Positions 2,466 through 43,696 of a stretch of DNA of 64,000 nt are shown here, in pieces. Made by a program: the position numbers and the translations under genes. A model generated the notes under the pieces. That model made no database searches, had not been told where the DNA came from, and saw only the letters and a program-made list of their open reading frames with translations. Positions within the stretch are counted from its first letter, which is position 1. Every line of letters starts with the position of its first letter. The stretch is from Thermodesulfobacteriota bacterium (lineage in GTDB: Bacteria; Desulfobacterota; Desulfobacteria; Desulfobacterales; JARGFK01), in NCBI GenBank assembly GCA_040757625.1, contig JBFLWU010000015.1, positions 7,684 through 71,683 of the forward strand. The letters are read 5' to 3'.

Positions 2466-4076
2466 TTACACTTTCACGCGCAGTTTGGCCTGGTTTTCAC
2501 CATTGATGAAATGATCGCCTTTCAGGGCACGTTCGGCTTCCAGTTCCAGTTCCTCATCCCACTGGCCCAGGGAGTATCCGAACCAGGGCGGCTGCGGCGT
2601 CAGCGCAGGCAGGCCCAATTCCTCCCAGATCTTTCGGGCGTTTTCCATGTACTTCTTTTTCGGAAGCGAAATCGGCGGATACGGTTCTTTTAAAATGGCG
2701 TTGACCAGCAGGGCGGACTCGTCGGCCGGATCATGCTGAGACGCAATGTCCGTGCTGACGCTGGCGCCGCCGAAGGGGGGCGCATGACCTTTTTCAAGTC
2801 CCTTCAGAATCTGAACATCTAGATGGGGCTTCATCCGGTAACACATGGCCCACATGACGGCATCCAGGTTTTCGGGATCGATATCGGTGTCCACCGCCAC
2901 CAGAATTTTTCCGACCCCCTGATGAAGGGACACGGTGGCATACAGGGCCCGCCACACTTCCGATTCGCTGGGTTTGTCCATCTGGATGACGATGAATTTT
3001 CGCAGGTTGGTGAGGGGCTCGTGCAGGTATACCCGTTTGACGCACTTGATACTGTATACGTTTTTCAGGTGGTTGATAAACAGAGGCTCATATCCGACCT
3101 TCTTGACTACCGAGCTTTCGCTGGGGGTCACCTGGCTGATCCAGGAAACATAGGTGGCTTTCTTTTTGTGGGTAATGCAGGTGACTTCCATGTACGGATT
3201 GGTCTGGCGCGGATGCATATAGCCGTGGGACTCGCCGAAAGGCCCTTCCGGTTCCAGATATTCGGTCGACATTTTGCCTTCGATGACGATTTCCGCATCC
3301 GCCGGAACTAAAATATCCACGGTTTTACATTTGACCACCGGGATCGGTTCGCCCACCAGGCCGCCGGCAACGGTGATTTCATCAACATCGCGGGGTACTT
3401 TTTGAACGGCCGCATAGGAAACAGCCGGCGGAGCGCCGATGACCAGAGCGGCCTCCAGGGGAACTCCTTTGGCCTTGGCCTTTTCCCAATGTACCTGGAT
3501 GTCCTGCCCCAGGCCGCTGGGGAAGCACCCCACTTTGCGGCGCTGTTTCATCTGGCCCCGGTAATTACCGATATTTTGAATGCCGGTTTCAATATCTTTT
3601 GTAAACCAGTGAGAGCAGGTGGAATAGGGAGCGTTGTCAAAACCGGGCGTTGAAATGGGGACCGGAAAGCGATCGGTGCCGTTGCCTTCCTTGTCCAAAT
3701 CATTTCCCTTGATGACGACTTCCTGGCAGGGCGCTTTATCCACAATAACGGGATCAATCCGATTGGCAAGAGCTTTTTGCCAGATCGTGTTGACCTCTTC
3801 GGGTTTGCAGCCCACGCCGGTGAAATAAATTTCCGGGTTGGCCGCCAGTGCGCCCACAACCACCGGCATGTCATATTTTTTGCCTTTGGCGTCAACTACG
3901 TTTTCAAACAAAAATGCCTTGCGGTCTTTTTCGGCAATGCCGCCGCGGTATTGCCATCTTACCAGCGGATGGAGCTCCGTGTCTTTATTGATTTCTCTTT
4001 TGACACGAACCAGCAGCCCTTTTTTCTCCAGGGTTTTCAGGTGTTGGTTGAGAGTTTTATACCTTTTTGTTGCCAT
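2466..4076 (-). CDS. UbiD-family (prFMN-dependent) decarboxylase, long form L1 (536 aa)
   Basis: ORF 2466..4142 trimmed to the ATG at 4076 (MATKRYKTLNQHL), which has AGGAGGAAGG just upstream. UbiD-like blocks include PVPISTPGFDNAPY, EGPFGESHGYMHPR and GKILVAVDTDIDP. It has an acidic C-terminal extension, GYSLGQWDEELELEAE. Confidence 0.9.
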   Translation of the reverse strand: MATKRYKTLNQHLKTLEKKGLLVRVKREINKDTELHPLVRWQYRGGIAEKDRKAFLFENVVDAKGKKYDMPVVVGALAANPEIYFTGVGCKPEEVNTIWQKALANRIDPVIVDKAPCQEVVIKGNDLDKEGNGTDRFPVPISTPGFDNAPYSTCSHWFTKDIETGIQNIGNYRGQMKQRRKVGCFPSGLGQDIQVHWEKAKAKGVPLEAALVIGAPPAVSYAAVQKVPRDVDEITVAGGLVGEPIPVVKCKTVDILVPADAEIVIEGKMSTEYLEPEGPFGESHGYMHPRQTNPYMEVTCITHKKKATYVSWISQVTPSESSVVKKVGYEPLFINHLKNVYSIKCVKRVYLHEPLTNLRKFIVIQMDKPSESEVWRALYATVSLHQGVGKILVAVDTDIDPENLDAVMWAMCYRMKPHLDVQILKGLEKGHAPPFGGASVSTDIASQHDPADESALLVNAILKEPYPPISLPKKKYMENARKIWEELGLPALTPQPPWFGYSLGQWDEELELEAERALKGDHFINGENQAKLRVKV

Positions 4077-4269
4077 TTCCTTCCTCCTGTTGTGGGTTAA
4101 AGACCGGTCGGCATATTTTGTAAAAAAATGAACAATACCCAAGAAGGTTCATCATTCGGATTGCGAAAAAACAAACCAATTCCGGCTTACCAAGGATTAG
4201 AGAAGTCGCAGCATCACTGAAGCCGAAGGATTGCAGCTATTTTTCGATGCGGCCGAATTAACTACAATA

Positions 4270-4306
4270 TAGTCACAATGTAACTATAATCGTTTGGGGA
4301 TGTCAA
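4270..4306 (-). promoter_or_regulatory. sigma70-like promoter with operator A (TAGTCAC-AAT-GTAACTA) upstream of UbiD L1
   Basis: On the minus strand: a T-tract, TTGACA (4306..4301), an 18-nt spacer and TACATT. The 17-bp pseudo-palindrome at 4270..4286 overlaps the -10. Confidence 0.5.
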
Positions 4307-4372: not shown

Positions 4373-5080
4373 TTAATCCCACAAAACGCCGGCCCTGCGA
4401 CCTTTTTCCAGATAATATTCCCAAACTTTTTTGATGCTTACGGATGGCAGGTAGGTTTTAGCGGCTGCGCGTTTGATCTGTTCCGGCGAAAGCGGCCGGG
4501 GGGTGCCGAGGATGGAGGATTCCACCAGCAGGCGGGCGTTTTCTTCCAGATACAGACAGGCCACAAAAGTTGCCTCGATGGAGGATTCAGCCACCACCGC
4601 ACCGTGTCCTTTCATAATAACGGCGCGTGAGCTGCCCAGCGCGTTGGCCAGTCCGTCTGCCTCTTCAAAGGTGGTGATTTTCTCCGCCTCGGAATAAACC
4701 GGGACCACCGCCCCGAAAATGCTGCCGTGATGGCAGACGGGGACCAGGTCCTTTCCGGCAATGCTGGGCAGAATCGCGTAATGGCAATGGATGTGAGCCA
4801 CGCTGTTGACATCGGGCCTGGCCCGATAAACAGCGGCGTGAATGGGGAGCTCTTGGGGCGGCTCATGCCTGCCGCCGACCCATTCGCCGGTCAACGAGAC
4901 TTCCGGCAGATCGTCCGGGATCACCGCCTCGCGGGAAATCCGCATGGGGTTTATAAAGAAGGTCTTCAGGCCCGGCGCCCGGACGCTGATATGCCCGGAA
5001 TAATCCAGCAGCCCCGCCAGGGTCAGGAGGCGGCAGGCCCGCGCCGCATTGTCTTTCGAGATCTGGATGTCTTTGTCCAT
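4373..5080 (-). CDS. class II aldolase/adducin-fold protein
   Basis: 235 aa. Metal-binding His cluster VAHIHCHYAILPS. The N-terminus LAGLLDYSGHISVR is typical of the family. Confidence 0.85.
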   Translation of the reverse strand: MDKDIQISKDNAARACRLLTLAGLLDYSGHISVRAPGLKTFFINPMRISREAVIPDDLPEVSLTGEWVGGRHEPPQELPIHAAVYRARPDVNSVAHIHCHYAILPSIAGKDLVPVCHHGSIFGAVVPVYSEAEKITTFEEADGLANALGSSRAVIMKGHGAVVAESSIEATFVACLYLEENARLLVESSILGTPRPLSPEQIKRAAAKTYLPSVSIKKVWEYYLEKGRRAGVLWD

Positions 5081-5093: not shown

Positions 5094-5486
5094 TCATTTG
5101 CTGATGGTTATCTCAACAACGTCGCCGTCATGCAACCCTAAGGTTTCCTTCAGGCATACCGGCGAAATAATTTCTATGATATGTCTTGCATGAATCCGGA
5201 CATTCTCGGCAGGGATGATGATCGCTCCCATAACGCCTTTTATGTTAACAGGAAATGTCCGGGCGCAGCAGAATTGAGGGTCCGGCGGCACCAGGGCCAG
5301 ACTGTCGATACCCCTCAGGGAATTCAGTTTGGCGGTGTCCGATTCGGCGATTTCCAGGTTCAGGGTTCCGGGATAAGGCTTAAACCCCAATTTCTCTTCG
5401 CACTGCTCCTGCACCCAGTCCAATTGCGTGAAAAAAGCGGCCTGGCGCGCTCCGCTTACAATTCTGCCGGTTAATGTATCGCTCAT
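5094..5486 (-). CDS. ribK: CTP-dependent riboflavin kinase (archaeal RibK-type domain)
   Basis: 130 aa. GRIVSGARQAAFF...LGFKPYPGTLNLEI matches the PYPGTLN signature of archaeal-type riboflavin kinases. Confidence 0.7.
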   Translation of the reverse strand: MSDTLTGRIVSGARQAAFFTQLDWVQEQCEEKLGFKPYPGTLNLEIAESDTAKLNSLRGIDSLALVPPDPQFCCARTFPVNIKGVMGAIIIPAENVRIHARHIIEIISPVCLKETLGLHDGDVVEITISK

Positions 5487-5525: not shown

Positions 5526-5846
5526 CTATTTTTGAAACCATTTCTTGAATTGAAAGTCATTCGGCGATTGGATGGAAGTATCGCTTAATATGGATTTCAG
5601 ACTGACTACATGTTCATGGGTTTCACCCAGCGCAGCGGCCAGGGACCGGGCAGCTCGGCCCAGGGTGCCGTCCAGCGGCGCCTGAAATTTTTCTTTGGCA
5701 TCAGGCGGAAGGTGTTGATACGCGCTGACAATATTTCGGACCCAGTTGGACAGCTCGTCGGGATTTAAGTCCTTTTTACCATATACGTACCCTTCAAATG
5801 CTCCGACAGTCGCTGCGAATTCATAAATTTTCGCATATAGATGCAT
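5526..5846 (-). CDS. hypothetical protein (106 aa)
   Basis: Strong RBS GGAGGAAG lies 5 nt before the ATG at 5846. It is the first gene of the ribK-aldolase operon. No family recognised. Confidence 0.55.
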   Translation of the reverse strand: MHLYAKIYEFAATVGAFEGYVYGKKDLNPDELSNWVRNIVSAYQHLPPDAKEKFQAPLDGTLGRAARSLAAALGETHEHVVSLKSILSDTSIQSPNDFQFKKWFQK

Positions 5847-6081
5847 CAGGCTTCCTCCATTAAAGATTGAAACCGAGAAAAGATATTCGCAGCATAAAGG
5901 GGACGCCCCGATTTGTCAACGGTCCAGAAAGGGTTGGGCGGCAGTGGCAAGGAGCCGGTTTTGATTTGACATCCACTCAAACCGCGTGATACCTGAATCA
6001 TGCAAAAAACATGAAAGCTTCCGGCGCGTGTAATATTCAGATAAAGCGCACAACTATCAACCCATCCATGAACGGTTGAAA

Positions 6082-6954
6082 ATGGCCGCTGTCTACGCGA
6101 TTCTTTCAGCATTTTTGTATGCCGTTGCGAATGTTTATACCAAAAAGGGATTCGCACACACCAATATCCTGTCTGCTTTCATCATCAGCATTATTTCATG
6201 CTTTATTTCTTCTCTGGCGATTTGCCTGTTTCTGTTTTCATTCGAGCGGTATTTTGATCGGGCTGTCTGGTTTTTCATCGCGGCGGGTCTTGTCGGCCCT
6301 TTCCTGGGAAGGGCCCTTTTGTATGAAGCGATCGATCGCGTGGGCGCATCGGTGGCCTGCACCGTATTTGAAGCCAAGCCGATTTTTTCCGTCGTAATCG
6401 CCGTGCTTGTGCTGGAGGAACGGCTAAGCATTTCCATTCTGTTCGGGGTCCTATTGATGATGCTGGGAACCGTGATTATCAGCCGGGAAAGCTCCGGCGG
6501 CGATATTGTAAAAAAATGGACCCGCAGGGATTTGATTCTGCCGCTGTTTGCCGGCGCATGCTATGGGGGCTCTCACGTATTGAGAAAAATAGGAATTAAT
6601 TTGACGCCCGAACCTTTTATGGCGGTGATGTGGCAAAATGCCGGTGCGCTGATTTGTTCGCCTTTCCTTATCTGGGCCTATCGCAACAATCAGCAGGTAA
6701 CTTTTCACAATCAAAAGGCCTGGTTTGTTTTCGGCGTAGCCGGGATATTGCAGGTGGCGGCCCAATGGTGCCTCTTTGCGGCATTGGAATACGGCACCGT
6801 TGTAGTGGTGTCTCCGCTGACTTCGTTGTCCACGCTGTTCGTTCTGTTGCTGGCGGCGTTTCTTCTGAAGAAAGTCGAACGCATCACCTGGAAGATCGTA
6901 ACCGGCGCACTGTTGATTATCGGCGCTACGGTTGTATTGACGCTGTTTCCATAG
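6082..6954 (+). CDS. EamA/DMT-family membrane transporter
   Basis: About 10 predicted hydrophobic helices in two repeated halves. ATG at 6082 chosen over the TTG at 6076. Confidence 0.85.
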   Translation: MAAVYAILSAFLYAVANVYTKKGFAHTNILSAFIISIISCFISSLAICLFLFSFERYFDRAVWFFIAAGLVGPFLGRALLYEAIDRVGASVACTVFEAKPIFSVVIAVLVLEERLSISILFGVLLMMLGTVIISRESSGGDIVKKWTRRDLILPLFAGACYGGSHVLRKIGINLTPEPFMAVMWQNAGALICSPFLIWAYRNNQQVTFHNQKAWFVFGVAGILQVAAQWCLFAALEYGTVVVVSPLTSLSTLFVLLLAAFLLKKVERITWKIVTGALLIIGATVVLTLFP

Positions 6955-7421: not shown

Positions 7422-8420
7422 ATGAAAACGAAATTGGTATTACTGATTATCGCATTTGTGTTGGCATGGATGCCCATAACGAACGGACATGCCACACCTT
7501 TCTATGAAGGGAAGGTCATCCAGTTGATCGTTTCAACAAAACCGGGAGGCGGTTTCGACTCCTATGCCCGTCTACTGGCCGGCACGATGGAGAAGTACCT
7601 GCCGGGCTGTACCATCATCGTAAAGAATGTTCCCGGTGCCGGCCATATCATTGGAACCAACCTGATTTATTCCGCGAAACCGAACGGGTTGACGTTCGGT
7701 ATTTTTGAAAGGTCGCTGGTCGCCACCCAGGTTGCCGGTTTGAAAGGCGTCAAATTCGATCTGAGCAAAATGAGCTGGCTGGGTTCGCCGGCATCCGACC
7801 CGCGTTCCTTTGTTGTGGCCAAGCATACGCCTTATCAGACCCTTGATGATGCGCTTAAGTCGAAACAGCGGATTAGGTTTGCGGCATCCGGAATCGGTAC
7901 TGCCGATTATCTGGATCCGGTTTTGATGGGAAAAATGCTTGGGGCGGAAAACTGGCAGATCAGTACGGGTTATGCCGGGCAGGAAGACCAGCTGGCAATG
8001 ATGCGGGGAGAGATTGATGCCGTAATTACTTCATGGAGCAACGGCAAGGGGTTTGTCGAAAGCGGGGAAGGACGGGTGCTGATGTTCAACAGCGACAAAC
8101 CGATACCGGGATACGAGCAATTGCCTTTGCTGAAAGATATCGTCTCAAAAGAGTATCAGCCCCTTATCGATCTGCTGCTCTTTATGGTGATGTTCAATCG
8201 GCCGTTTGCGGGACCGCCGGATATTCCGGCCGATCGCCTGGGGATATTGCGGGAAGCCTTCAAAAAGTCATGGAATGATCCGGAAATGCTTAAAAAAGCC
8301 GAGCTGATGAAACGGCCCGTCAATTACATCGGTTACGCCGAAGGTGAAAAACTGATCAAAAACGCGTTAAATCAACCGCCCGAGGTCGTCAAGCTGATTA
8401 AGGAGGCCTTTGGACAATAG
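7422..8420 (+). CDS. tctC: TctC-family (Bug) periplasmic solute-binding protein of a tripartite tricarboxylate transporter
   Basis: 332 aa. Signal peptide MKTKLVLLIIAFVLAWMPITNGHA and the motif KPGGGFDSYARL. Confidence 0.9.
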   Translation: MKTKLVLLIIAFVLAWMPITNGHATPFYEGKVIQLIVSTKPGGGFDSYARLLAGTMEKYLPGCTIIVKNVPGAGHIIGTNLIYSAKPNGLTFGIFERSLVATQVAGLKGVKFDLSKMSWLGSPASDPRSFVVAKHTPYQTLDDALKSKQRIRFAASGIGTADYLDPVLMGKMLGAENWQISTGYAGQEDQLAMMRGEIDAVITSWSNGKGFVESGEGRVLMFNSDKPIPGYEQLPLLKDIVSKEYQPLIDLLLFMVMFNRPFAGPPDIPADRLGILREAFKKSWNDPEMLKKAELMKRPVNYIGYAEGEKLIKNALNQPPEVVKLIKEAFGQ

Positions 8421-8620
8421 TCGAACCTGTCTCAAAAACCCAACCGGCGTCCGATGGCGGCGTTATCGGCCGGTTCAATATACTCACACCCGAGCAGGAC
8501 GGCCGCGGGTCGCCTTGCCCTCGAACAGCCTCTGTATTTTTGAAACAGGTTCTAATCAATTGGGGAGTGCCGGGAGTCGAAAACAAGGGAATTATCATTA
8601 CATCTGGAGGTCAATGGGAG

Positions 8621-9163
8621 ATGAATCCACAAAGTGATGCCGGAGAAATCAAGTGGGAGATGTGGCAAAAAAAAAGGGTATTTGTGCGGGAACTTTCGGG
8701 AAAATATGCCGAGATCTATGAAAATCTACTAAAACAGCCCAGGGTCTATAAAAGCAAGGAAATACCCTTTAAAGGCGGGCCGATTTTCTTTCACAAGCGC
8801 GCCGTTGATCCGAAAACCACCGCAATCACTCAGACAATCGAGTCACACATCGATGTGCTGGCCCCTGGCGGTTACGGCCAAAAACACGGCCATATGAACA
8901 GCGCACTTTTTTACATCCTGGATGGCAAAGGCTATGATATTCACGAAAAGATCCGCTATGACTGGGAGGCGGGAGATGTCTGCATCGTGGAAAACGGCTG
9001 CGTTCATCAGCATTTCAATGATGAATCCGAAAGGCCGGCGCGCTATATCGTTTTCAAGGCTAAACCGTTGTTTCTGTTTTTTCATCTGATGTTTCAGAAA
9101 AATGTGACCTATCCATCCGCGGAGCCTAAGCCGGGATGGGAAAATTTCCAGGCGGAAGATTAA
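8621..9163 (+). CDS. monocupin, gentisate-1,2-dioxygenase-like, type A (3-His pattern)
   Basis: ORF 8540..9163 trimmed to ATG 8621 (GGAGG upstream). Cupin motifs GQKHGHMNSALFYILDG and GDVCIVENGCVHQHFN. The canonical Glu of motif 1 is absent. Confidence 0.75.
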   Translation: MNPQSDAGEIKWEMWQKKRVFVRELSGKYAEIYENLLKQPRVYKSKEIPFKGGPIFFHKRAVDPKTTAITQTIESHIDVLAPGGYGQKHGHMNSALFYILDGKGYDIHEKIRYDWEAGDVCIVENGCVHQHFNDESERPARYIVFKAKPLFLFFHLMFQKNVTYPSAEPKPGWENFQAED

Positions 9164-9177
9164 AGGGGAGGAACCTC

Positions 9178-9729
9178 ATGCAGTACGAAGAAGCGAAAAA
9201 AGCGGTGAAAGGCGATAAACACGCCAATTACTATCAGGAGTTTCTTGAGCAGTCAAAAGCGTTTCGAGCAGATTACCGGAATCGCAAGAATGTCGTCAAG
9301 GCCGAGGAGATGCCCTGGGATGATTCCGTACAGGGACGCATCAAGCATATGGTGAATGAAAAGATGAATACGCGTGAATGCGCCATCGACCTGTATCAGC
9401 AGTTTCTGAAGCCGGGAGGCGCCAGCGGCAAACACCGTCACATGTCTGAAGAAATATTATATGTGCTGGAAGGAAAAGGATATGATCTGCATTGGGATGT
9501 TAAATTCGAATGCACGGAAACCTATGCCTGGGACTGGGAAAAAGAACCCAAAAAATTTGAATGGGAAGAAGGCGATTACGTTTATATCCCACCTTATACG
9601 ACCCATCAGCATTTTAATGCTGATAAAGAAAGACCAGTCCGGTTTATTTCTGCAACCAATCGCGTTGTAAAGAGCATGGGTTTTGACTGGATGGAACAGG
9701 TAGCGCCGGCTCCGGACTACAAACCATAA
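9178..9729 (+). CDS. monocupin, gentisate-1,2-dioxygenase-like, type B (HxH..E..H pattern)
   Basis: ORF trimmed to ATG 9178 (GGGGAGG upstream). Motif 1 is GASGKHRHMSEEILYVLEG and motif 2 is GDYVYIPPYTTHQHFN. Confidence 0.8.
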   Translation: MQYEEAKKAVKGDKHANYYQEFLEQSKAFRADYRNRKNVVKAEEMPWDDSVQGRIKHMVNEKMNTRECAIDLYQQFLKPGGASGKHRHMSEEILYVLEGKGYDLHWDVKFECTETYAWDWEKEPKKFEWEEGDYVYIPPYTTHQHFNADKERPVRFISATNRVVKSMGFDWMEQVAPAPDYKP

Positions 9730-11221: not shown

Positions 11222-11457
11222 ATCACGGTACTGTCTGCTCCAAACAGGTAATCAAGGCGCTACATTTCAAAGCATTTCTGGGGACAACCCGCCGGCATGT
11301 GCGGATAAAATTTGTTTTGCAGACGGATCCGAAAAGTCATTTTGGCCGACACCTGAATTTTGAACGAACAGATTGAAGGATGGAGTCGTTTTTCTTCGAT
11401 TATCATCAAGTTTCAGGTGGCAAGAATTGCGATAACCATTTAAAAGGAGGGGGGGGT

Positions 11458-12429
11458 ATGAGAAGAAAAAGCTGGCAAGTATTCCTGGTTGGAGGTCTGG
11501 CATTGATGTTAATGGCTTCGGCAATCAACACCCATGAGGCTTACGCTGAAAACTATCCGGAAAAGGACATCCTTTGGATTATACCCTTGCGGGCCGGCGG
11601 TGGATATGACACCTATTCGAGAAGAATTGCGCCGGTTATGTCGAAATATCTTCCCAACAAAGTCAATGTGGGGGCAAAAAACATTACAGGGGCGGGTGGC
11701 GTCACAGGCGTCAGCACGGTCTTTAAATCCAAACCGGATGGTTACACTATTGGTCTGGCGGCCTATCCCGGACTGGCGGTTGCAAGCATGACCATGGATA
11801 TCGGCTTTGATCCCAACCAACTGACCCCTCTTGCACAGATTGCGGTGAGCGAGCAGGCGCTGTTCGTTTCGAGCAAATCAAAGCTGAAATCTCTGGATGA
11901 CCTCAAGAAGACCAAGGGCGTCCGCCTGGGGACGACCTCACGGGGGGCGTCCATGTTTTCTTTCTCGCTGGTAGCCAGCAAGACGCTGGGGATTGACTCC
12001 GAACTGGTAACCGGATACGGCGGGACTTCCGATATTATACCGGCAATCATGCGGGGGGATGTTGACGGTGCCGTACTGAATCTGACACAGCTGAAAAAAT
12101 ATATCGAGAGCGGTGATTTAAAACCGCTTTTTACGTTTACCTCCAAACGGCATGAACTGACTCCGGATGTGCCCTGCGTGTCCGAACTGGGTGTCCCGGA
12201 AGCAACGGTTGTCCAGGACTACAAGATGCTGTTTGCCCCGCCGGGACTGCCGAAAGACCGGCTGGACATTCTGAAAAAAGCGCTAGTCGATTCATTTAAC
12301 GACAAGGAGTTGCTGGAATGGTCAAAGAAATCTAGCATGCCGCTGGAATTGAAAATGGATGCGGAAATGAAAGCTGAAATCGACAAAATGACCAAGGTTT
12401 ACGGGCAGTATAAGGAACTACTGAAATAG
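11458..12429 (+). CDS. tctC: TctC-family solute-binding protein (second one in this operon)
   Basis: ORF trimmed to ATG 11458 (AAGGAGGGGGG upstream). Signal peptide MRRKSWQVFLVGGLALMLMASA and the motif RAGGGYDTYSR. Confidence 0.9.
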   Translation: MRRKSWQVFLVGGLALMLMASAINTHEAYAENYPEKDILWIIPLRAGGGYDTYSRRIAPVMSKYLPNKVNVGAKNITGAGGVTGVSTVFKSKPDGYTIGLAAYPGLAVASMTMDIGFDPNQLTPLAQIAVSEQALFVSSKSKLKSLDDLKKTKGVRLGTTSRGASMFSFSLVASKTLGIDSELVTGYGGTSDIIPAIMRGDVDGAVLNLTQLKKYIESGDLKPLFTFTSKRHELTPDVPCVSELGVPEATVVQDYKMLFAPPGLPKDRLDILKKALVDSFNDKELLEWSKKSSMPLELKMDAEMKAEIDKMTKVYGQYKELLK

Positions 12430-12440
12430 ATGGAAAGCAT

Positions 12441-12473
12441 CGCGGAGGGGACTCTCCTTCCGCGGTGATTTTT
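12441..12473 (+). terminator. intercistronic hairpin plus T5 (partial terminator/attenuator) between tctC and tctA
   Basis: 10-bp stem CGCGGAGGGG/TCCTTCCGCG with loop ACTC, followed by GTGATTTTT. Confidence 0.45.
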
Positions 12474-12489
12474 CTCAAGGGGGGCGCAT

Positions 12490-29116: not shown

Positions 29117-29173
29117 GTGTCGATTGCTATCCCCTACACGTTGTGATAATCCTAATTCATCAAAGGTGTTGCT

Positions 29174-33873: not shown

Positions 33874-34440
33874 ATGACCGGACAGGAAACAAAGGATTAC
33901 AGCGACATCTGGGCCGCCGGACAGGAGAAATATCAGAAGCAGCGGCTTTACGTGAGAGCGATCGCCGGTTTCAGCTACAGCATGGCGCAGCAGCTCAAGG
34001 AACTGCGGAGCGTCCCGCGCGTCATGAAGGCAAAAGATCTGAAATTCGCCAAGGGCCCGCAGTATTTCAACTGTACCATCCTCAGTCCCATCCGCAACAT
34101 GGCCCAGTCGATCTTTACGCACATGTGCGTCCTGACGCCGGAGGGCAAATCCCAGAAGCACGGGCACGTGAACGAGGCCATTTTCTTCATACTGGACGGC
34201 GAAGGATATGACATCCACGACGGAGAGCGGCAGGACTGGAAGGCCGGCGATATCGCCATTGTCCCGAATTCAACAGTGCATCAGCACTTCAATAAGAGCA
34301 AGGACAAACTGGCGCGGGTGCTGATCATCAAGACCAAGCCTTTCTATCATTTCATGAATATGTTTTTCCAGGAAGTGGTGGAACCGCAGCCGAAGACGCC
34401 TGTTCCCGGTTATGAGGATTTTAAGCCCAGCATTACCTAA
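33874..34440 (+). CDS. monocupin, gentisate-dioxygenase-like, type A (second pair)
   Basis: AAGGAG RBS. SQKHGHVNEAIFFILDG and GDIAIVPNSTVHQHFN. Paralog of 8621..9163. Confidence 0.75.
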   Translation: MTGQETKDYSDIWAAGQEKYQKQRLYVRAIAGFSYSMAQQLKELRSVPRVMKAKDLKFAKGPQYFNCTILSPIRNMAQSIFTHMCVLTPEGKSQKHGHVNEAIFFILDGEGYDIHDGERQDWKAGDIAIVPNSTVHQHFNKSKDKLARVLIIKTKPFYHFMNMFFQEVVEPQPKTPVPGYEDFKPSIT

Positions 34441-34475
34441 ACAGCCTGCTAATGTCGAAAGGGGAGGATAACGTT

Positions 34476-35027
34476 ATGGATTACGGAGAGAAAAAATATG
34501 CCCAGCCCAAGGCGCCCACGGCGACCTACTACCAGGATCGCCTGGTCGAGGTTCAGAAGGCCAAGACCGCCCATAAGCGATCGGTCGTTTCCGCCGAAGA
34601 GATGGAGTGGGAGCTTTGCCAGCAGGGTCACATCAAGCACCTGGTGAACGAAAAGATGGAAACCGCCTCCAATACCCTCGATATCTGCATGCAGGTTATT
34701 CCCGGCGGGAGCCGCTCGGGCAAGCATTGCCACATGGCCGAGGAATATATGTTCATCTTGGAGGGAAAGGGCTATTCGCTGCACTGGGATGTCGATTTCG
34801 AGTTGGGTGAAGCCTATTACTGGAAAGCCCAGGAAACGCCGTCCAAGTGGGAATGGGAGCGGGGCGACTCGGTTTACATCCCGCCCAATACGGTTCACCA
34901 GCACTTTAATTCCGATCCCAAAAACCCGGTTCGCTTTATTTCGGCGGAAAGCCGCATGTTCAAGTACATGGGGCTGGACACCCTGGAGCAGTTCGAGAAC
35001 GCTCCGGAATTCGACCGGAAGAAGTAA
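34476..35027 (+). CDS. monocupin, gentisate-dioxygenase-like, type B (second pair)
   Basis: ORF 34452 trimmed to ATG 34476 (GGGGAGGA 7 nt upstream). SRSGKHCHMAEEYMFILEG and GDSVYIPPNTVHQHFN. Paralog of 9178..9729. Confidence 0.8.
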   Translation: MDYGEKKYAQPKAPTATYYQDRLVEVQKAKTAHKRSVVSAEEMEWELCQQGHIKHLVNEKMETASNTLDICMQVIPGGSRSGKHCHMAEEYMFILEGKGYSLHWDVDFELGEAYYWKAQETPSKWEWERGDSVYIPPNTVHQHFNSDPKNPVRFISAESRMFKYMGLDTLEQFENAPEFDRKK

Positions 35028-36860: not shown

Positions 36861-37958
36861 ATGACCCTGTTTTTGAACAACGACGACGTCAGGCGCGTCC
36901 TCACCATGGAGCTGACCATCCGGGCCCTGGAGGAATCCTACACGCGCATGATCCAGGGCGAGGGGGTATGCCGTCCGCGGATCGACGTCCAGATCCCCAC
37001 CAGCGACCCGGCTAAAACCTACCGCTGGGGAACCATGGAGGGGGGCTCGGCCAGCGGGTATTTCGCCATCCGAATGAAATCGGACATCGCCTTTGAAAAA
37101 CGCTACAGCGGCAGCATCACCCTGGAAAAGTACTGCATGGTGCCGGGAACGTTTTGCGGGCTGATATTTCTGTTCCGGGTCGATACCGGCGAGCCCCTGG
37201 CCATTTTAAACGATGGCTATCTTCAGCATCTGCGCGTGGGGGCCGATTCGGCCCTGGGCGTCCGCTACATGGCCCGGGAGGATGCGGAAACGGTGGGAAT
37301 GTTCGGATCCGGCGGCATGGCCAGGAGCCACATGGAATCGTTTTGCCTGGTCAGAAACATCAAGCGGCTCAAGGTGTACAGTCCCACCCGAAAAAACCGC
37401 GAAGCCTATGTCCGCGAGATGGAAGCGACCTATGGGATAGAGGCCGTCGCCCTGGACAATCCTGAAGATGTGTACAAGGACGCCGACATCCTGTGCAGCT
37501 GCACCGACGCCAGCGTGCCGGTGATACGGGGGTGCCATGTCCGCAAGGGGACCCATATCACCTCCATCGGCGGCCGCCCCGATGCGGATACGTTTAAAAA
37601 GATCGACCGGTTTCTGCGCTTTGGCAACGCCACGCCGCCTTTCGGCTGCGACCAGCCGGTGGTGGATGAATTCCTGCGGTACGTTACCCCTAAAATGGGT
37701 GGCGGCATCAAGCGCGAACACTCCCATGCCCGGGGAGTCGTTGGGGCAATCGCCGGGGAACGGGTGGTCTATTTAAAGGATATTCTCGCTGGCAGGAAAG
37801 GCCGGCAGACACCGGACGACATTACTTACTCGGAGCGGGGAAATCTTCAGGGCGCTCAGTTTTACGCAGTTGCCGGAAAGGTCTATGAACTTGCCCGGCA
37901 GCAGGGTTTGGGCAGGGAAATACCAACGGAATGGTTTCTGCAGGATATCCGTGATTAG
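36861..37958 (+). CDS. ornithine cyclodeaminase/mu-crystallin-family NAD(P)-dependent enzyme
   Basis: 365 aa. N-terminus LFLNNDDVRRVLTMELTIRALEESY and the Rossmann segment VGMFGSGGMARSH. Confidence 0.8.
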   Translation: MTLFLNNDDVRRVLTMELTIRALEESYTRMIQGEGVCRPRIDVQIPTSDPAKTYRWGTMEGGSASGYFAIRMKSDIAFEKRYSGSITLEKYCMVPGTFCGLIFLFRVDTGEPLAILNDGYLQHLRVGADSALGVRYMAREDAETVGMFGSGGMARSHMESFCLVRNIKRLKVYSPTRKNREAYVREMEATYGIEAVALDNPEDVYKDADILCSCTDASVPVIRGCHVRKGTHITSIGGRPDADTFKKIDRFLRFGNATPPFGCDQPVVDEFLRYVTPKMGGGIKREHSHARGVVGAIAGERVVYLKDILAGRKGRQTPDDITYSERGNLQGAQFYAVAGKVYELARQQGLGREIPTEWFLQDIRD

Positions 37959-38137: not shown

Positions 38138-38833
38138 ATGAACGAAGACAAACTGCGAATAGAGGTTGCTACCTGCGTACGCTTGCTGGAATATCTGGGG
38201 CTGATTGATTTCAGCGGGCATGTCAGCGCCCGCATCCCGGGGACCGACACCATCCTGATCAATGCCTGGGGAGGCAAGGCCAGCCCGGAAAAGGTAACGC
38301 CGGCGGATATCATCAAGGCCGACCTGGACGGCAATCCCATTAGGGAAGGGGATCAGCTGCCGTCGGAAAAGTATATCCACACCTCCGTCTACCGGTACCG
38401 GCCGGACGTCCTGGCGGTGGCCCATACCCATCCGCCGGTGACAACGGCGGTGAGCGCCGCCGGAATTGAATATGTTCCGGTGATGCACCATGGCGCCATT
38501 TTTCATGCAGGGGTTTCGGTGTATGACGACTGCCGGCATGTAAACACCCGCGAAAAGGGGGATGCCGTGGCCGCCGCCCTGGGCCAGCTGCGGGCGACTC
38601 TGATCCGCGGACACGGCGCGGTGGTGGTGGCCGAAAGCGTCAAGGGGGTGTTTTTCGGGTCCGTCTATCTGGAAGACAACGCCAAGAAGCTGGCGGACAT
38701 CTATAAGATGGGGAGAAAGCCGATCGTGCTGCGCGCCGAAGAAAACGAAGCCTGTGCCCGCATCTGGCGCGAAAACCAGTTCCATAAAATCTGGAATTAT
38801 TATCAGGAAAAAAGCGGCGTTCGCTTTGATTGA
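38138..38833 (+). CDS. class II aldolase/adducin-fold protein
   Basis: GGAGGA RBS. 231 aa. VAHTHPPVTTAVS His cluster. Confidence 0.85.
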   Translation: MNEDKLRIEVATCVRLLEYLGLIDFSGHVSARIPGTDTILINAWGGKASPEKVTPADIIKADLDGNPIREGDQLPSEKYIHTSVYRYRPDVLAVAHTHPPVTTAVSAAGIEYVPVMHHGAIFHAGVSVYDDCRHVNTREKGDAVAAALGQLRATLIRGHGAVVVAESVKGVFFGSVYLEDNAKKLADIYKMGRKPIVLRAEENEACARIWRENQFHKIWNYYQEKSGVRFD

Positions 38834-38926: not shown

Positions 38927-39481
38927 TTACAGTTGGGCCTGCAACAGCAGATCAAAGAGCAGGTAAAAGCCCGCGCATACGGATATGCCGAGAATGATGG
39001 AGCGCTTCCAGCTTTCCCCGGCTTCCATGCGGGTGGCAAATACCGTAAAGGCGCCCACGGCGATGAGGTAGTTGACATAGGCCAGCAGCAGGATAAACCC
39101 GGCCAGCCATAGAATGACCCGGAAAAGGCGCCACCATTCAGAACGGCTTTCGGTTTCTTCCTGAACAGCCGGTCGGCCGCTGCCGGCTGCCGGTTTTTTT
39201 GCGGCAGAACTTTCTTTCGGTTTGCTTTCGGTTTCGAGCAGGCTGCTCTGGCTGATGAATCGCAGCTTGCTTTTGAGTTTCGGGAAGGCGTCGGAAAGGA
39301 GCTGCATAAAAATCATGAAGCTTCCGATCAGGCCGAGTCCCAGGGGGATCGACCGCGCCCGGGGATTGTATTCCAGCGACATAATTGCCAGGAGCAGAAA
39401 AAACACGAACACCAGCAGGTCGAAAATAACCCGGTCGTTGATGATAAGCCTTTTTGGTTGTTGCTCAGTTGTCATGATCAA
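38927..39481 (-). CDS. tctB: TctB small membrane subunit (with a long hydrophilic central loop)
   Basis: 184 aa, four hydrophobic segments, located directly downstream of tctA. Its C-terminal half resembles the tail of the TctA-TctB fusion at 49094. Confidence 0.7.
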   Translation of the reverse strand: MIMTTEQQPKRLIINDRVIFDLLVFVFFLLLAIMSLEYNPRARSIPLGLGLIGSFMIFMQLLSDAFPKLKSKLRFISQSSLLETESKPKESSAAKKPAAGSGRPAVQEETESRSEWWRLFRVILWLAGFILLLAYVNYLIAVGAFTVFATRMEAGESWKRSIILGISVCAGFYLLFDLLLQAQL

Positions 39482-39597
39482 TCTAATCCCCCGGTTTGGA
39501 TTGGTTGGCTCCGCTTACCCGGAACCCCCCCGGTTTTTTATCGGCCCTGATCCCGTCCCGGCCAAATTGGGTTGAGAGCGGTATAGGGCGCTTTCGT

Positions 39598-41082
39598 TCA
39601 AGGGGCGGTCTTTTTTCGCATGGCGGCCTGAATATACGGCAGCAGCACCATCGTGACCGTAATGATGAAAAGCCCCAGGGAGATGGGGCGCACAAAAAAA
39701 CCTTTTACGCCCCAGAGCATCAGGGTTTGGTGAAAGGTTTTCTGGGCCAGCCGGCCCAGCACCAGCGCGATCACCACCGCCACCCGCGAAAAGCCGAAGC
39801 GTTTCATGGCGTATGCCAGCACGCCGAAAACCAGCGACAATACCACGTCGAAAATCATTCCATGTGTCAGGTAAGAACCGATCAGCGCAAGCATAAACAC
39901 GACAGGCGCCAGCAGGGTTGCGGGAACATACGTCAGCTTGACCATCACTCCGGCGCCGAACAAGCCGAAGAGCGACACCAGAATGTTTCCGGCCACCAAC
40001 ACGTAGATAAGAATTAAAACGGTTTCGGGATTTTCCATCATCATGCGGGGACCGGGTTCCAGCCCCAGGACAATCAGGGCGCCCAGCAGGACGGCCATTT
40101 CAATGCTGCCGGGAATGCCGAATATCAGCGTGGGAACCAGGGCGCCGCCGTCCTTGGAATTATTGGCCGACTCGGGCGCTATCACGCCGCGGATGTCCCC
40201 CTTGCCGAAGTTTTCCGGATTTTTGGACGATTGCAGCGCGTGACCGTAGGCAATAAAATTGGACACGGCGCCGCCGACGCCCGGGATGATACCGATGATG
40301 GTTCCAATGATGGAACAGCGGATAAAAAGCCCGAAGTTCTGAAAAACGGATTTTACGCCGGCGGAAATGTCAGAGATCTTGCCTTCATAGTCCACCTGGG
40401 CGATTTTCCCTTTTTTGAGAAACAGCTCAATGGCTTCGCCGATGGCAAAAAGGCCGATAAAGGCGGGCACCAAGCGGATGCCGTCCCAGAGATGGTCGGA
40501 GCCGAAAGTAAAACGCACGGAGCCAGTAACCGGATCGTATCCGATGGTTGAAAACATCAGCCCCAGACCCGCGGCGATCAGTCCTTTCCACAAGGAGCCC
40601 TTGGAAACCACCACGATTACGCTCAGGCCCATCAATGCCAACATGAAATATTCGGGATAGGAAAAAAGAAGCACCACCCGGCGGCCGATGGGCAGCAGGA
40701 CCGTCAAAACAATAGCCCCGAAAATGGCGCCAAGGCATGAGGCGGTCGCCGAAGCGCCGATGGCCATACCGGCCTTGCCCTGCTGGGCCAGGGGAAATCC
40801 GTCAAAACAGGTTGCCGCGCTTTGGCCGGTTCCCGGAGTGTTGATGAGGATCGCCGGTATGGATCCGCCGAAGGGAACCGCGGCCATGGCGCCGATGAGC
40901 AGCACCATGGCCAGGTTGATGTCCATGCCGTAGGTGATGGGAAGGAGCAGTGCCAGAACCTGGGGACCTCCCAGACCGGGCAGGATGCCGAATGTCATTC
41001 CCAACAATACACCCAAAAACAAATAAAGGGGCGCCGGCCATGTAAACAGTTCTATCAGGGCCGGCAGTGCGGATTCAAACAT
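39598..41082 (-). CDS. tctA: TctA large permease subunit
   Basis: 494 aa. GILPGLGG, INTPGTG and GIPGSIEMAVLLGA blocks. Confidence 0.95.
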   Translation of the reverse strand: MFESALPALIELFTWPAPLYLFLGVLLGMTFGILPGLGGPQVLALLLPITYGMDINLAMVLLIGAMAAVPFGGSIPAILINTPGTGQSAATCFDGFPLAQQGKAGMAIGASATASCLGAIFGAIVLTVLLPIGRRVVLLFSYPEYFMLALMGLSVIVVVSKGSLWKGLIAAGLGLMFSTIGYDPVTGSVRFTFGSDHLWDGIRLVPAFIGLFAIGEAIELFLKKGKIAQVDYEGKISDISAGVKSVFQNFGLFIRCSIIGTIIGIIPGVGGAVSNFIAYGHALQSSKNPENFGKGDIRGVIAPESANNSKDGGALVPTLIFGIPGSIEMAVLLGALIVLGLEPGPRMMMENPETVLILIYVLVAGNILVSLFGLFGAGVMVKLTYVPATLLAPVVFMLALIGSYLTHGMIFDVVLSLVFGVLAYAMKRFGFSRVAVVIALVLGRLAQKTFHQTLMLWGVKGFFVRPISLGLFIITVTMVLLPYIQAAMRKKTAP

Positions 41083-41168
41083 GACTTCCTTCTTTATTTT
41101 TGAAAATTAATGGTGCGAGCTGCTGTCCGCATCCCGAAAATCGTCGCAAAATAATATTCGAAAGGCCC

Positions 41169-42161
41169 TTATTTCTGGTATTTCAGAATCAGGTCCTTGA
41201 ACTTGGCGACCATGCCTATCCCTTGCTTGATCATCTTAGCGGTGTCTTCAGGCGTCATAGGCATGGCCGGTTCATTGGCGGCAATCATCTTTTTCTGGAA
41301 CTCCGGATCATTGGTCGCCTTCCAGAAGGCGTCATACCAGATTTTTTTGACATCGTCCGGAAGCCCCGGCGGCGCTCCCACGGGACGATACATGGTGACG
41401 ACATCCGTTAGATCGCCGTATCCCAATTCTTCAACCGTTGGGACATCCGGAAGGATTTTGGAGCGCTTTTTGGAATAGATCCAGAGCGGAATGAGGTCCT
41501 TTGAATCGACAATTGTTTTCTTTAAGGTTGCTATGGGATACTGCACCCAGTCAACGTCGCCGCGCATCGCGGCCAGAATGGCCTCGGTACTTCCGTCATG
41601 GGGGATCGGTTTCATTTTGACGCCCATGGCCTGGGCGGCGATAATGGTCCCCAACCCGGCAGTGGAGGACAGGCCGACCACCCCGGAGGTGACCTCCGGT
41701 GCTGCTTGAAGCTCCTTTAACGTTTTGTATTTGGATTTGGGGGAAACGCACATGACATAGGTGACTTCGCTGATGTTTCCCAGCCAGGTGACCTTGTTGA
41801 GATCAAATTCGGCGGTACCCAGGACCTGATTGACGGCATTGGCAGGCCAATTGAATATGCCGAAGGTATTCCCGTCCGGTTTGGATCGGTACATTTTGTT
41901 GATGCCGATATTCCACTCGCCGCCGGGGGTATTCTTAACGACAATATTGGGATTACCGGGTAAATACTTTTGAAGATAGGGGACCAGCATGCGCGAGAAC
42001 GTGTCAAACCCGCCACCGGGACTGACCGGAATGATAAAGGTCATGGTTTTTGCGGGAAATTTTGCTTCGGCGGCACCGGCCCCAAAGGCGGTTACCAGCA
42101 ATGCCGTGAGCAGGCATAGAACGGCAATGTTCCTTGCCTGATGCAGGGTATTTCTTTTCAT
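41169..42161 (-). CDS. tctC: TctC-family solute-binding protein
   Basis: Trimmed to ATG 42161 (GGAGGGAG RBS). Signal peptide ...LLVTAFGAGAAEA and the motif SPGGGFDTFSR. Confidence 0.9.
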   Translation of the reverse strand: MKRNTLHQARNIAVLCLLTALLVTAFGAGAAEAKFPAKTMTFIIPVSPGGGFDTFSRMLVPYLQKYLPGNPNIVVKNTPGGEWNIGINKMYRSKPDGNTFGIFNWPANAVNQVLGTAEFDLNKVTWLGNISEVTYVMCVSPKSKYKTLKELQAAPEVTSGVVGLSSTAGLGTIIAAQAMGVKMKPIPHDGSTEAILAAMRGDVDWVQYPIATLKKTIVDSKDLIPLWIYSKKRSKILPDVPTVEELGYGDLTDVVTMYRPVGAPPGLPDDVKKIWYDAFWKATNDPEFQKKMIAANEPAMPMTPEDTAKMIKQGIGMVAKFKDLILKYQK

Positions 42162-42241
42162 GGCTCCCTCCATTTATTTAATGAGTAAAGAGGCATCTCT
42201 TGATACCTCTGAATTTCAGCGGGCACCCTGTTGTCCAACAA

Positions 42242-43696
42242 TCAGATATCCGTCCAGCGCCCGTTGAATTTAGATTTCCATTTGTCAAAAACTTCCTGGC
42301 GCAGCTTTTCGCTATTTAATGAAGTCGGTGGAAATTCATTCATCCATTCATAGGGTTTGACTGCGTAGATAATGCCGTGGGAGTTGGTATAATCATTGGT
42401 CGGTTTGCGGATGCGGGGATCCAGCGGGCCGCTCCAGGACCGTTTGATGATATCCATTTCCTTGGGGTCCGAGCGGGTACAGATGGCCCACATGACGTCT
42501 TCCATGTCGTAGGGGTTGATATCTTCATCCACCACCACGACATACCGTCCGATGTAGGCACCGGCCCGGGTCTGGGAAGCGATATGACCGGCTTCGGTGG
42601 CATGGCCCGGGTAGCTCTGTTTAATGGAGACCACCGTAAAGAGACGGGAGCCGCCGAAAGCCGGGCACCACACCCCCCGGACTTCGGGGATGCCGGCCCG
42701 TTCGATTTCATTATATACCAGTGCCGAGCGCCAGACAGCCCGCCAGAAACCCTGGTCGCTGGCCAGGCCCTTTGAGGGCGGTGATCCCAACAGAATGGGG
42801 TTATTGCGGTAATATAAGGCTTCAACCTTGACAAACGGCTCCTCCCTGCCTTTACTGGCATACGTGCCGGTCCACTCACCGAAGGGTCCTTCAAACTTCT
42901 GATCGCCGGGATTGGCGATTCCCTCCAGAACGATTTCCGCATTTGCCGGAAACGGCAGGCCGGTCACTTTGCCTTTGATGACCGGAACGGGTTCCTCTCT
43001 GACGGCGCCCATGTAGTCCAGCTCGTAAATGCCGGTGGGGATTTCACTGGCGGAGAGGATATAGCTGAGGGGATCGAAGCCCACCACCATTACCACCGGG
43101 CATGGTTCGCCTCTCTGGAAGTATTTATCGCGGTGGATGCGGCTGTGCTTGCCGGGTGAGATGTAAAATCCGACATGCCGGCTGTCATGCAGCATGACCC
43201 GGTAGGTTCCCATATTGACGATGCCGGTATCAGGATCCCGGGTGATAACGCCGACGCCGGTGCCGATATATCTGCCGCCGTCATGCTCGTGCCAAAGGGG
43301 GACCGGAAATTTTTCGAGATCGACCTTGTCGCCTTCTTCAACATTTTCGAGAACCGGTCCGGAATCTACAACCCGGCAGGGAAAATCTTTGGCGGACTGC
43401 GCCCATTGGCCCGCTTTGGTTTTCAGCGTTTCAATCGTTTGCCGGATACTGTTTTCAACCGGCAGGCCGAAGGTCAGGTTGACGGTTCGGATATTGGCCA
43501 CTGAATTGGTGACGATCCGAAGTCCTTTCCGATATCCCTTCACCTCGTCGAATAAAAGCGCCGGACCCTGGTTGCGCCCGTTGATTTGGACCATGGTTCC
43601 GATTTCCAGATGAGGATCGGCACCTTCAACGACTTGTAATTCTCCGATATTTTCTACCTGTTTCAGCCATTCTCTCATGTCCTTGAAAGCGATCAT
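42242..43696 (-). CDS. UbiD-family decarboxylase/carboxylase, 484 aa (U7)
   Basis: Trimmed to ATG 43696 (MIAFKDMREWL), 1 nt after the upstream gene's stop. Blocks HDGGRYIGT, EGPFGEWTGTY, KQSYPGHATE, VVVVDEDINP. Confidence 0.9.
   Translation of the reverse strand: MIAFKDMREWLKQVENIGELQVVEGADPHLEIGTMVQINGRNQGPALLFDEVKGYRKGLRIVTNSVANIRTVNLTFGLPVENSIRQTIETLKTKAGQWAQSAKDFPCRVVDSGPVLENVEEGDKVDLEKFPVPLWHEHDGGRYIGTGVGVITRDPDTGIVNMGTYRVMLHDSRHVGFYISPGKHSRIHRDKYFQRGEPCPVVMVVGFDPLSYILSASEIPTGIYELDYMGAVREEPVPVIKGKVTGLPFPANAEIVLEGIANPGDQKFEGPFGEWTGTYASKGREEPFVKVEALYYRNNPILLGSPPSKGLASDQGFWRAVWRSALVYNEIERAGIPEVRGVWCPAFGGSRLFTVVSIKQSYPGHATEAGHIASQTRAGAYIGRYVVVVDEDINPYDMEDVMWAICTRSDPKEMDIIKRSWSGPLDPRIRKPTNDYTNSHGIIYAVKPYEWMNEFPPTSLNSEKLRQEVFDKWKSKFNGRWTDI

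Follow-up and report, generated by a model that had tools for sequence, protein, structure and literature searches.

Eight UbiD-family genes and a single UbiX within 41 kb of a Thermodesulfobacteriota contig: a probable toolbox island for aromatic and heteroaromatic carboxylic acids

Why should a bacterium carry eight genes of the UbiD family, but only one for the flavin prenyltransferase UbiX, within 41 kb of DNA? We addressed this question for a 64-kb stretch of a Thermodesulfobacteriota contig (the whole of which is referred to as the window here), numbering its UbiD genes UbiD1 to UbiD8 from left to right (Table 1). The window is probably a toolbox island for aromatic and heteroaromatic carboxylic acids, that is, a catabolic region that depends on prenylated flavin mononucleotide (prFMN), contains one UbiX, and belongs to an uncultured Desulfobacterales-like host. 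An earlier reading of this DNA, made without database searches (the sequence-only reading), had placed eight UbiD open reading frames (ORFs), one ubiX, and one ribK homolog here, and Pfam and tblastn searches confirmed all of them at their coordinates. The Pfam model PF01977 matches all eight UbiD ORFs with E values of 1e-30 to 1e-65 (107 to 221 bits, against a cutoff of 23.3); the UbiD_C domain is present in all eight (55 to 104 bits), and UbiD_N is present in most. When the paralogs were used as tblastn queries against the whole window, exactly eight full-length UbiD loci were retrieved, with one UbiX, one PF01982 homolog, and no UbiD fragment anywhere in the window. Chance cannot account for eight homologs of a single family within 41 kb. 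With ATG starts, UbiD1, UbiD6, and UbiD8 measure 536, 478, and 484 amino acids; for UbiD1 and UbiD6 these starts fit the lengths of homologs better than the longer TTG ORFs, and for UbiD8 the ATG was accepted without orthologs for comparison.

To find out whether these are working enzymes, we aligned the eight paralogs with Escherichia coli UbiD. Enzymes of this family use a Glu-Arg-Glu/Asp network (E277/R173/E282 in Aspergillus niger Fdc1, equivalent to E285/R180/D290 in E. coli UbiD), and an Asn, a His, and a Glu residue ligate the Mn2+/Fe2+ ion to which the phosphate of prFMN is anchored. The network and the metal ligands are named in PMC5818171, and R159 and E269 are the catalytic residues of PhdA (PMC10850782). 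The positions of N175, R180, E241, and E285 are invariant in all eight paralogs, and that of D290 is occupied by Glu in every one; the same catalytic and ligand residues hold across 240 database homologs. Two of the metal ligands, Asn and Glu, are thus invariant, and the third, a His located 23 residues past the Asn and scored here on the PGKH column, is kept in six paralogs; UbiD1 has Asp in its place, and UbiD7 has Gln. Asp also occupies this position in 103 of the 120 closest listed homologs of the long forms (UbiD1 and UbiD3), and the Gln of UbiD7 recurs in a 67% identical ortholog at locus L007 (loci of other genomes bear the prefix L). On alignment evidence, both changes are conserved variants rather than lesions, and they may reflect a different metal or a different geometry of cofactor anchoring.

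The absence of the canonical His ligand from two paralogs might suggest that most of the copies are decaying or redundant duplicates, a fate that the sequence-only reading had also considered. This is scarcely conceivable, since all eight ORFs are uninterrupted and of family-typical length, their catalytic residues are intact, and both ligand changes are conserved in relatives. Moreover, identities of 24 to 62% mark the copies as ancient, and five of them (UbiD1, UbiD4, UbiD5, UbiD6, and UbiD7) have closer homologs (63 to 95%) in other genomes than in the window. By these marks, none of the eight genes is in decay.

The paralogs fall into three size classes, as had been stated before, and these correspond to three anciently separated clades as judged by pairwise identity: 62% between the two long forms, 42 to 53% among five forms of about 480 amino acids, and 24 to 30% between clades, with UbiD4 standing apart. 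The mutual divergence of the five ∼480-residue copies argues for different substrates. Orthologs of UbiD6 are 77 to 94% identical in other lineages, including a Firmicute, and given that cross-phylum orthologs reach 77 to 82% whereas the paralogs of the window reach only 42 to 53%, the duplications must be old. An exact-sequence search with UbiD4 retrieved no record, and the window itself is not contained in the genome collection searched. The nearest relatives are found in Desulfobacterales metagenome-assembled genomes (MAGs), at 88% for UbiD4 and 95% for UbiD1, and the UbiD1 orthologs of L031 (95%) and L025 (82%) keep the same neighbors. The clades of the long and the ∼480-residue forms, both uncharacterized, have at least about 8,000 database matches each at an E value below 1e-30, a level that most UbiD-family proteins may reach; among the closest 120 listed homologs of each clade, which are 60 to 95% identical, none has a functional name.

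None of the eight UbiDs reaches an equivalog cutoff of the NCBIfam models for UbiD, MqnL-type proteins, VdcC, PpcA, PpcB, or BagN. Together with empty literature searches, this bears out the statement that, the phthalate module described below apart, the modules match no characterized UbiD system. For the ∼480-residue forms, we compared UbiD2 and UbiD6 with solved structures, and for both the best relative is 7PDA (335 and 362 bits, respectively), which is PhdA, the phenazine-1-carboxylic acid decarboxylase of Mycolicibacterium fortuitum (PMC10850782). The alignment is colinear over the full length, with conservation at the positions of its catalytic Arg and Glu269. The divergence is nevertheless large, and the window contains no phenazine-related genes, the partners of these UbiDs being importers and cupin pairs instead. 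For the long forms, the comparison was made with UbiD3, UbiD1 being placed through its identity to UbiD3. The best solved relative is the 2,5-furandicarboxylate decarboxylase HmfF (6H6V/6H6X), at about 160 bits over the core only. A heteroaromatic dicarboxylate as the substrate fits the dicarboxylate-import context of the window, but the relationship is distant, most long-form homologs have Asp for His, and Pfam scans detected no hmf-type oxidase or dehydrogenase genes nearby in the window. The long forms also extend at the C terminus some 60 to 100 residues beyond the HmfF-like core. The acidic GYSLGQWDEELE tail of this extension, noted earlier, is seen in both long forms in the alignment and recurs (GYSLGQW followed by acidic residues) in 119 of the 120 closest listed homologs.

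UbiD4 can be placed more precisely, since it matches the phthaloyl-CoA decarboxylase (PCD) of Thauera chlorobenzoica (8OZ5/8PMK) with 518 bits (E = 2e-154; 48% identity, colinear over residues 7 to 498). PCD is active on phthaloyl-CoA and depends on K+ and Fe2+. In the anaerobic o-phthalate route, CoA transfer from succinyl-CoA is followed by prFMN-dependent decarboxylation to benzoyl-CoA (PMC13040137; PMC9516798). UbiD4 is the only one of the eight with an insertion between the two catalytic Glu residues, which aligns without gaps to the Thauera enzyme; we used this insertion as a mark of PCDs, a working criterion taken from alignments and not a published definition. On the same strand, UbiD4 is followed by two genes of the family-III CoA-transferases (CoA_transf_3), SucC, SucD, and UbiX. 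CoA-transferases adjoin PCD in 15 of 18 PCD loci, the order of PCD and two CoA-transferases (with SucCD and UbiX) recurs in related Thermodesulfobacteriota MAGs, and SucCD is kept in the PCD loci L001, L005, L007, and L009; in the window it is embedded between the CoA-transferases and UbiX. The similarity to the solved enzyme and the gene order identify the UbiD4 module as the known anaerobic o-phthalate module, as the sequence-only reading had recognized from the CoA-transferases, and make the two CoA-transferases candidate subunits of a succinyl-CoA:phthalate CoA-transferase. PCD with its Glu-Glu insertion, CoA-transferases, and UbiX are shared with the modules of T. chlorobenzoica, Aromatoleum aromaticum, and Azoarcus sp. 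PA01, from which the window differs in the 48% identity, the Thermodesulfobacteriota host, the built-in SucCD, and the seven surrounding UbiDs. According to a 2026 review (PMC13040137), a CoA ligase serves instead in the sulfate reducer examined to date, and anaerobic terephthalate degradation is not yet resolved. No benzoyl-CoA pathway genes were found in the window.

Two side observations concern PCD loci. Homologs (42%) of the solute-binding-protein-like ORF at 17477 to 18592 lie directly upstream of PCD in L003, L008, and L018. In L016 (CP070751.1), a chromosome labeled Thermoplasmata archaeon, an 81% PCD match of deltaproteobacterial type covers residues 1 to 344 only; the gene may be truncated, the contig mis-binned, or the assembly chimeric.

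The UbiDs that follow UbiX raise a different possibility, namely, that several paralogs, such as UbiD5, UbiD6, and UbiD7, are subunits of one large carboxylase complex acting on an unsubstituted aromatic compound. Naphthalene and benzene carboxylase clusters are compact and encode UbiD-like and small subunits together with an aryl-CoA ligase. In N47, for instance, four UbiD-like genes of the naphthalene carboxylase cluster lie within 8.9 kb (PMC12016498). The window resembles N47, AbcAD, and PpcABCD in the close spacing of several UbiD-like genes in an anaerobe, runs of adjacent UbiDs also occur in L023/24, and the ∼480-residue forms score best against the PpcB model. The sequence-only reading had called these five forms phenylphosphate-carboxylase-like. 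The motifs it listed are indeed seen in all five, with minor deviations in UbiD8 and UbiD2, but the profile resemblance is below threshold, and PhdA is the closest solved relative of UbiD2 and UbiD6. The equivalog cutoffs (TIGR02723/TIGR02724) are missed widely, with 277 to 320 bits against 469 for PpcB (UbiD2 reaching the 320) and 165 to 197 against 565 for PpcA; this, together with the missing accessory genes, led us to reject phenylphosphate carboxylase as an assignment. Among the window ORFs scanned with Pfam, we found no phenylphosphate carboxylase gamma-like or HAD-type delta subunit, no phenylphosphate synthase, and no AMP-binding (aryl-CoA) ligase, and small subunits and a phosphatase are likewise lacking. 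Furthermore, every paralog has the complete catalytic set, no UbiD fragment accompanies them, paralogs are found separately elsewhere (L001 has UbiD6 without UbiD5 or UbiD7), and the adjoining transporters imply carboxylate substrates. We therefore regard such a complex as highly improbable. In this comparison, AbcA and N47 were set apart by gene content, and PpcA/PpcB by the NCBIfam models and gene content.

Carboxylate import is represented by three TctCAB sets of the tripartite tricarboxylate transporter (TTT) type and an orphan TctC; an EamA gene is present as well. UbiD2 is preceded by a pair of cupin genes and followed by one TctCAB set, and UbiD8 heads a minus-strand operon with another. 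An uptake system for each UbiD module, as proposed earlier, is thus only partly borne out: TTT importers are interleaved with the UbiD genes, but UbiD1, UbiD3, and UbiD4 have no adjoining TTT. The TctC proteins gave no informative hint at a substrate, BugD and terephthalate-binding proteins tying at about 72 bits. Regarding the cofactor, UbiX exceeds the cutoffs of NF004685 (249.6 bits versus 188) and TIGR00421 (244 versus 109). The RibK-like protein, a bacterial stand-alone homolog of the archaeal CTP-dependent riboflavin kinase, matches PF01982 with 107 bits (cutoff, 25) but reaches only 78 of the 168 bits required by the ribK_Meth equivalog model; it may provide prFMN synthesis with FMN or some other phosphorylated precursor. 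Its gene belongs to a minus-strand run of a small ORF, RibK, an aldolase-fold gene, and, as the last gene, UbiD1, with YqeC/XdhC convergent to it. A RibK-like gene adjoins a long-form UbiD in L025 (5762-6501) and L031 (111-512); the small ORF has a 55% ortholog in L025, likewise upstream of the kinase gene, and the L031 contig begins at the kinase gene.

We then asked whether this arrangement is peculiar to the window. A common parts list recurs across phyla in L001, L021, L023/24, L026, L027, and L032, consisting of long UbiDs, PhdA-like UbiDs, paired cupins, TTT importers, aldolase-fold proteins, and proteins like ornithine cyclodeaminase (OCD), often with PCD and CoA-transferases. The Desulfobacterales MAG locus L001 reads PCD, two CoA-transferases, SucCD, UbiX, UbiD6, two cupins, an aldolase-fold gene, and TctB. 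In L031, the Desulfobacterales MAG locus with the 95% UbiD1, the order RibK, aldolase-fold gene, UbiD1, XdhC, YqeC repeats the left end of the window. A related gene set is found in Paradesulfitobacterium aromaticivorans (L021), and a metagenome contig (L023/24) has four UbiD genes in 21 kb. The MAG locus L026 joins a thiamine pyrophosphate (TPP) enzyme and an aldehyde:ferredoxin oxidoreductase (AOR) to a PCD-like gene, two CoA-transferases, a long UbiD, an aldolase-fold gene, a cupin pair, TctCAB, and OCD, and in a Thermoleophilia MAG (L027) a cupin pair and two CoA-transferases accompany four UbiD genes in 13 kb. The density of UbiD genes that the sequence-only reading had found unusual is therefore real, at eight in 41 kb, but not unique, given that four per 13 to 21 kb recur elsewhere. 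Seen across these loci, the high density points to a recurring, previously undescribed toolbox whose parts recombine between genomes. Our literature search found no paper linking UbiD with cupin/TTT islands or benzene polycarboxylates and nothing relevant on UbiD sequence networks.

The paired cupins are monocupins of about 190 amino acids and of two types, A and B, that are 41 to 66% identical across phyla and comprise about 1,500 database clusters. All four cupins of the window keep an HxH...HQH metal motif, as do 70 homologs. In three cupin-centered neighborhoods (L028 to L030), the A/B pair is present in each, two have no UbiD nearby, and one has TTT transporters only. Since the pair is also found without any UbiD, it would be an autonomous enzyme, and we rejected the cupins as UbiD subunits; by these sequence features, the A/B pair is an uncharacterized family of heteromeric metalloenzymes. 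The best sequence matches are gentisate and 5-aminosalicylate 1,2-dioxygenases, with which the cupins also share the His-rich metal motif. This would allow an O2-dependent hybrid pathway, in which UbiDs yield gentisate- or salicylate-type compounds from hydroxy-dicarboxylates and the cupin pairs cleave these with O2. However, the scores are weak, with 24 to 38 bits against 442 to 650, and for gentisate 1,2-dioxygenase itself the 24 to 29 bits against the TIGR02272 cutoff of 442, together with the organization as separate monocupins rather than a bicupin of about 350 amino acids, led us to reject that assignment. The two monocupin genes always occur as a pair, in apparent anaerobes. A Foldseek search with the AlphaFold model, which is of moderate quality (predicted local distance difference test score of 70), returned only generic Mn-cupins such as TM1459, and Pfam scans found no maleylpyruvate-processing or oxygenase genes in the window. 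The hosts appear to be anaerobes, as indicated by tungsten-type AOR, by PCD, and by the related island in P. aromaticivorans, which is a strict anaerobe. An O2-dependent hybrid is thus improbable.

A different association characterizes the long forms. Molybdenum (Mo) hydroxylase genes or their maturation factors lie beside them in the window and in L025, L031, L032, and L033, and full genes for hydroxylases of the xanthine dehydrogenase family flank long-form orthologs in L032 (2976-6851) and L033 (15466-17727). L032 also has an OCD-like gene and encodes isochorismatase-like hydrolases. N-heterocycle catabolism typically involves Mo-hydroxylase, isochorismatase, and OCD genes. The association hints at N-heteroaromatic acids as substrates of the long forms at least as much as at benzene polycarboxylates. 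In the window, where only the maturation factors are present, the Mo-hydroxylase itself may lie just left of the edge.

Taken together, we propose that the single UbiX would supply prFMN to eight UbiD decarboxylases of three clades. o-Phthalate would be taken up by TTT or other importers and converted with succinyl-CoA to phthaloyl-CoA by the two family-III CoA-transferase subunits, and the dedicated SucCD would regenerate succinyl-CoA, making the activation effectively ATP driven; UbiD4 would then decarboxylate phthaloyl-CoA to benzoyl-CoA. The five PhdA-like and two long-form UbiDs would decarboxylate free acids, a different one for each enzyme; the candidates are di- and tricarboxylates or hydroxy-carboxylates, aromatic or N-heteroaromatic, that the cell takes up. 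These UbiDs would work beside autonomous heteromeric metal cupins, aldolase-fold enzymes, OCD-like reductases, and pairs of a TPP-dependent decarboxylase and AOR, the modules forming a mix-and-match toolbox that occurs in varying combinations across anaerobes. The sequences themselves show that the genes belong to the family, that their catalytic residues are intact, that the phthalate module bears its signature, and that the gene set recurs; we infer the direction of decarboxylation, the use of free acids, and every substrate but phthaloyl-CoA.

Several points weigh against this proposal. A substrate can be assigned for only one of the eight paralogs. UbiD4 itself is only 48% identical to the characterized PCD, and its substrate could be an analog of phthaloyl-CoA. 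A second PCD-like clade, 47 to 48% identical to UbiD4, exists in L017, L026, and L027, with cupin pairs in all three and its own CoA-transferases in L026 and L027; it may act on a different aryl-dicarboxyl-CoA. Benzene polycarboxylates are electron poor, and we know of no free-acid UbiD that acts on them. In addition, UbiD reactions are reversible, so that the sequences would also allow the carboxylation direction.

How closely are the modules coupled? The sequence-only reading had proposed a dedicated platform for the stepwise decarboxylation of polycarboxylates. In its strongest form, this would be a single pathway, in which free-acid UbiDs trim benzene tri- and tetracarboxylates or hydroxy-phthalates to o-phthalate and PCD leads on to benzoyl-CoA. 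Uncharacterized UbiD clades and cupin pairs do lie directly beside PCD and CoA-transferases in the window, L001, L026, and L027 (three phyla), an adjacency that is compatible with funneling into phthalate. PCD also opens a co-directional array that ends with the third aldolase-fold gene (23498 to 38833) and has gaps of 11 to 236 nucleotides, in which UbiX is followed by UbiD5, UbiD6, a cupin pair, UbiD7, the OCD-like gene, and the aldolase-fold gene, and the window has several tricarboxylate-type importers. However, PCD modules often occur alone (L006 and L009), PCD is absent within 10 kb of the UbiD6-centered islands L021 and L023/24, Mo-hydroxylase, isochorismatase, and OCD genes accompany the long forms, and the literature offered no precedent for UbiD action on benzene polycarboxylates. 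Since the modules are also found separately, the data do not require one linear stepwise pathway, which we infer at most and consider possible but doubtful.

Along the same lines, the two uncharacterized UbiD clades might trim polycarboxylated aromatics to the level of phthalate or benzoate, an idea that we put forward tentatively and think unlikely to hold; candidate substrates would be benzene polycarboxylates (oxidized pyrogenic or humic carbon) and/or pyridine-type dicarboxylates. If true, such a route would add new substrate classes to the UbiD family and an O2-independent role for gentisate-dioxygenase-like cupin heteromers. Few UbiD enzymes have known substrates. The conserved, portable gene set described here ties uncharacterized clades to the phthalate pathway, TTT importers, and Mo-hydroxylases and thus provides a testable substrate shortlist, and P. 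aromaticivorans is a cultured organism with a related island. Biocatalysis with plastic monomers and CO2 fixation would profit from new reversible decarboxylases of aromatic di- and tricarboxylates, and such enzymes could explain the turnover of carboxyl-rich aromatic matter in anoxic aquifers and sediments.

Table 1 Coordinates of the features in the 64-kb window (aa, amino acids; nt, nucleotides)
Feature	Position	Strand	Evidence or remark
YqeC and XdhC, Mo-hydroxylase maturation factors	281..2342	+	Convergent with UbiD1
UbiD1, long form, 536 aa	2466..4076	-	Pfam UbiD, 1.5e-53
Class II aldolase/adducin-fold protein, first of three	4373..5080	-	PF00596, 2e-34
RibK-like protein with CTP-dependent riboflavin kinase domain	5094..5486	-	PF01982, 1e-30
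Conserved small ORF of 106 aa, upstream of RibK	5526..5846	-	No Pfam match
ORF, probably spurious	5846..6157	-	GTG start, atypical composition, overlaps EamA gene
EamA transporter gene	6076..6954		Overlaps the probably spurious ORF 5846-6157
Orphan TctC-type solute-binding protein	7422..8420	+	PF03401
Cupin A, pair 1	8540..9163	+	Cupin_2, HxH...HQH metal motif
Cupin B, pair 1	9136..9729	+	Cupin_2, HxH...HQH metal motif
UbiD2, PhdA-like, 474 aa	9797..11221	+	Pfam UbiD, 6e-64
TctC-TctA-TctB set 1	11380..14477	+	Pfam; TctB from 13986
Solute-binding-protein-like ORF	17477..18592		Upstream of UbiD3; weak NMT1/phosphonate-binding matches
UbiD3, long form, 547 aa	20162..21805	+	Pfam; His ligand kept
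Class II aldolase-fold protein, second of three	21937..22674	-	PF00596, 1.6e-45
UbiD4, PCD type, 514 aa	23498..25042	+	518 bits to 8OZ5/8PMK
Two family-III CoA-transferase genes	25243..27765	+	PF02515, 1e-85 and 8e-107
SucC/SucD-type succinyl-CoA synthetase	27953..30046	+	Pfam
UbiX flavin prenyltransferase	30237..30806	+	NF004685, above cutoff
UbiD5, PhdA-like, 486 aa	30820..32280	+	13 nt past UbiX
UbiD6, PhdA-like, 478 aa	32393..33829	+	PhdA, 362 bits
Cupin A and cupin B, pair 2	33874..35027	+	Pfam, metal motif
UbiD7, PhdA-like, 485 aa	35167..36624	+	Pfam; Gln at His-ligand position
OCD/mu-crystallin-family (OCD-like) protein	36861..37958	+	PF02423
Class II aldolase-fold protein, third of three	38138..38833	+	67% ortholog in L001
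TctC-TctA-TctB set 2, downstream of UbiD8	38927..42173	-	Pfam
UbiD8, PhdA-like, 484 aa	42242..43696	-	Pfam
TPP enzymes (three in all), with 4Fe-4S protein and AOR	45489-47327; 52175-58408	-; +
TctCAB set 3	49094..52150	+	Pfam; then two TPP enzymes, 4Fe-4S protein, and AOR to 58408
PrpD/MmgE-like and AcnX (aconitase X) genes	60073..63908		Right edge of the window

Among the remaining companion genes, the aldolase-fold proteins reach no NCBIfam cutoff. We rejected them as aromatic decarboxylases, given 81 to 101 bits to 3,4-dihydroxyphthalate decarboxylase against a cutoff of 200. Their best solved matches are entries for pyruvic oxime dioxygenase, which shows that the fold is not diagnostic. 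The first of the three genes has the same position in L031. OCD-like genes recur in L021, L023/24, L026, and L032, and TPP enzymes and AOR also lie beside related UbiD/cupin loci in L017 and L026. The TPP enzymes and AOR could convert aryl-2-oxoacids via aldehydes to acids. No NCBIfam cutoff was reached that would name the TPP enzymes, short-chain dehydrogenases/reductases, AOR, or the DUF6282 protein. An Rfam scan of the whole window, including the surroundings of ribK for an FMN riboswitch, gave no match at gathering thresholds. As a last observation, PrpBCD-like genes adjoin a long-form UbiD in L033.

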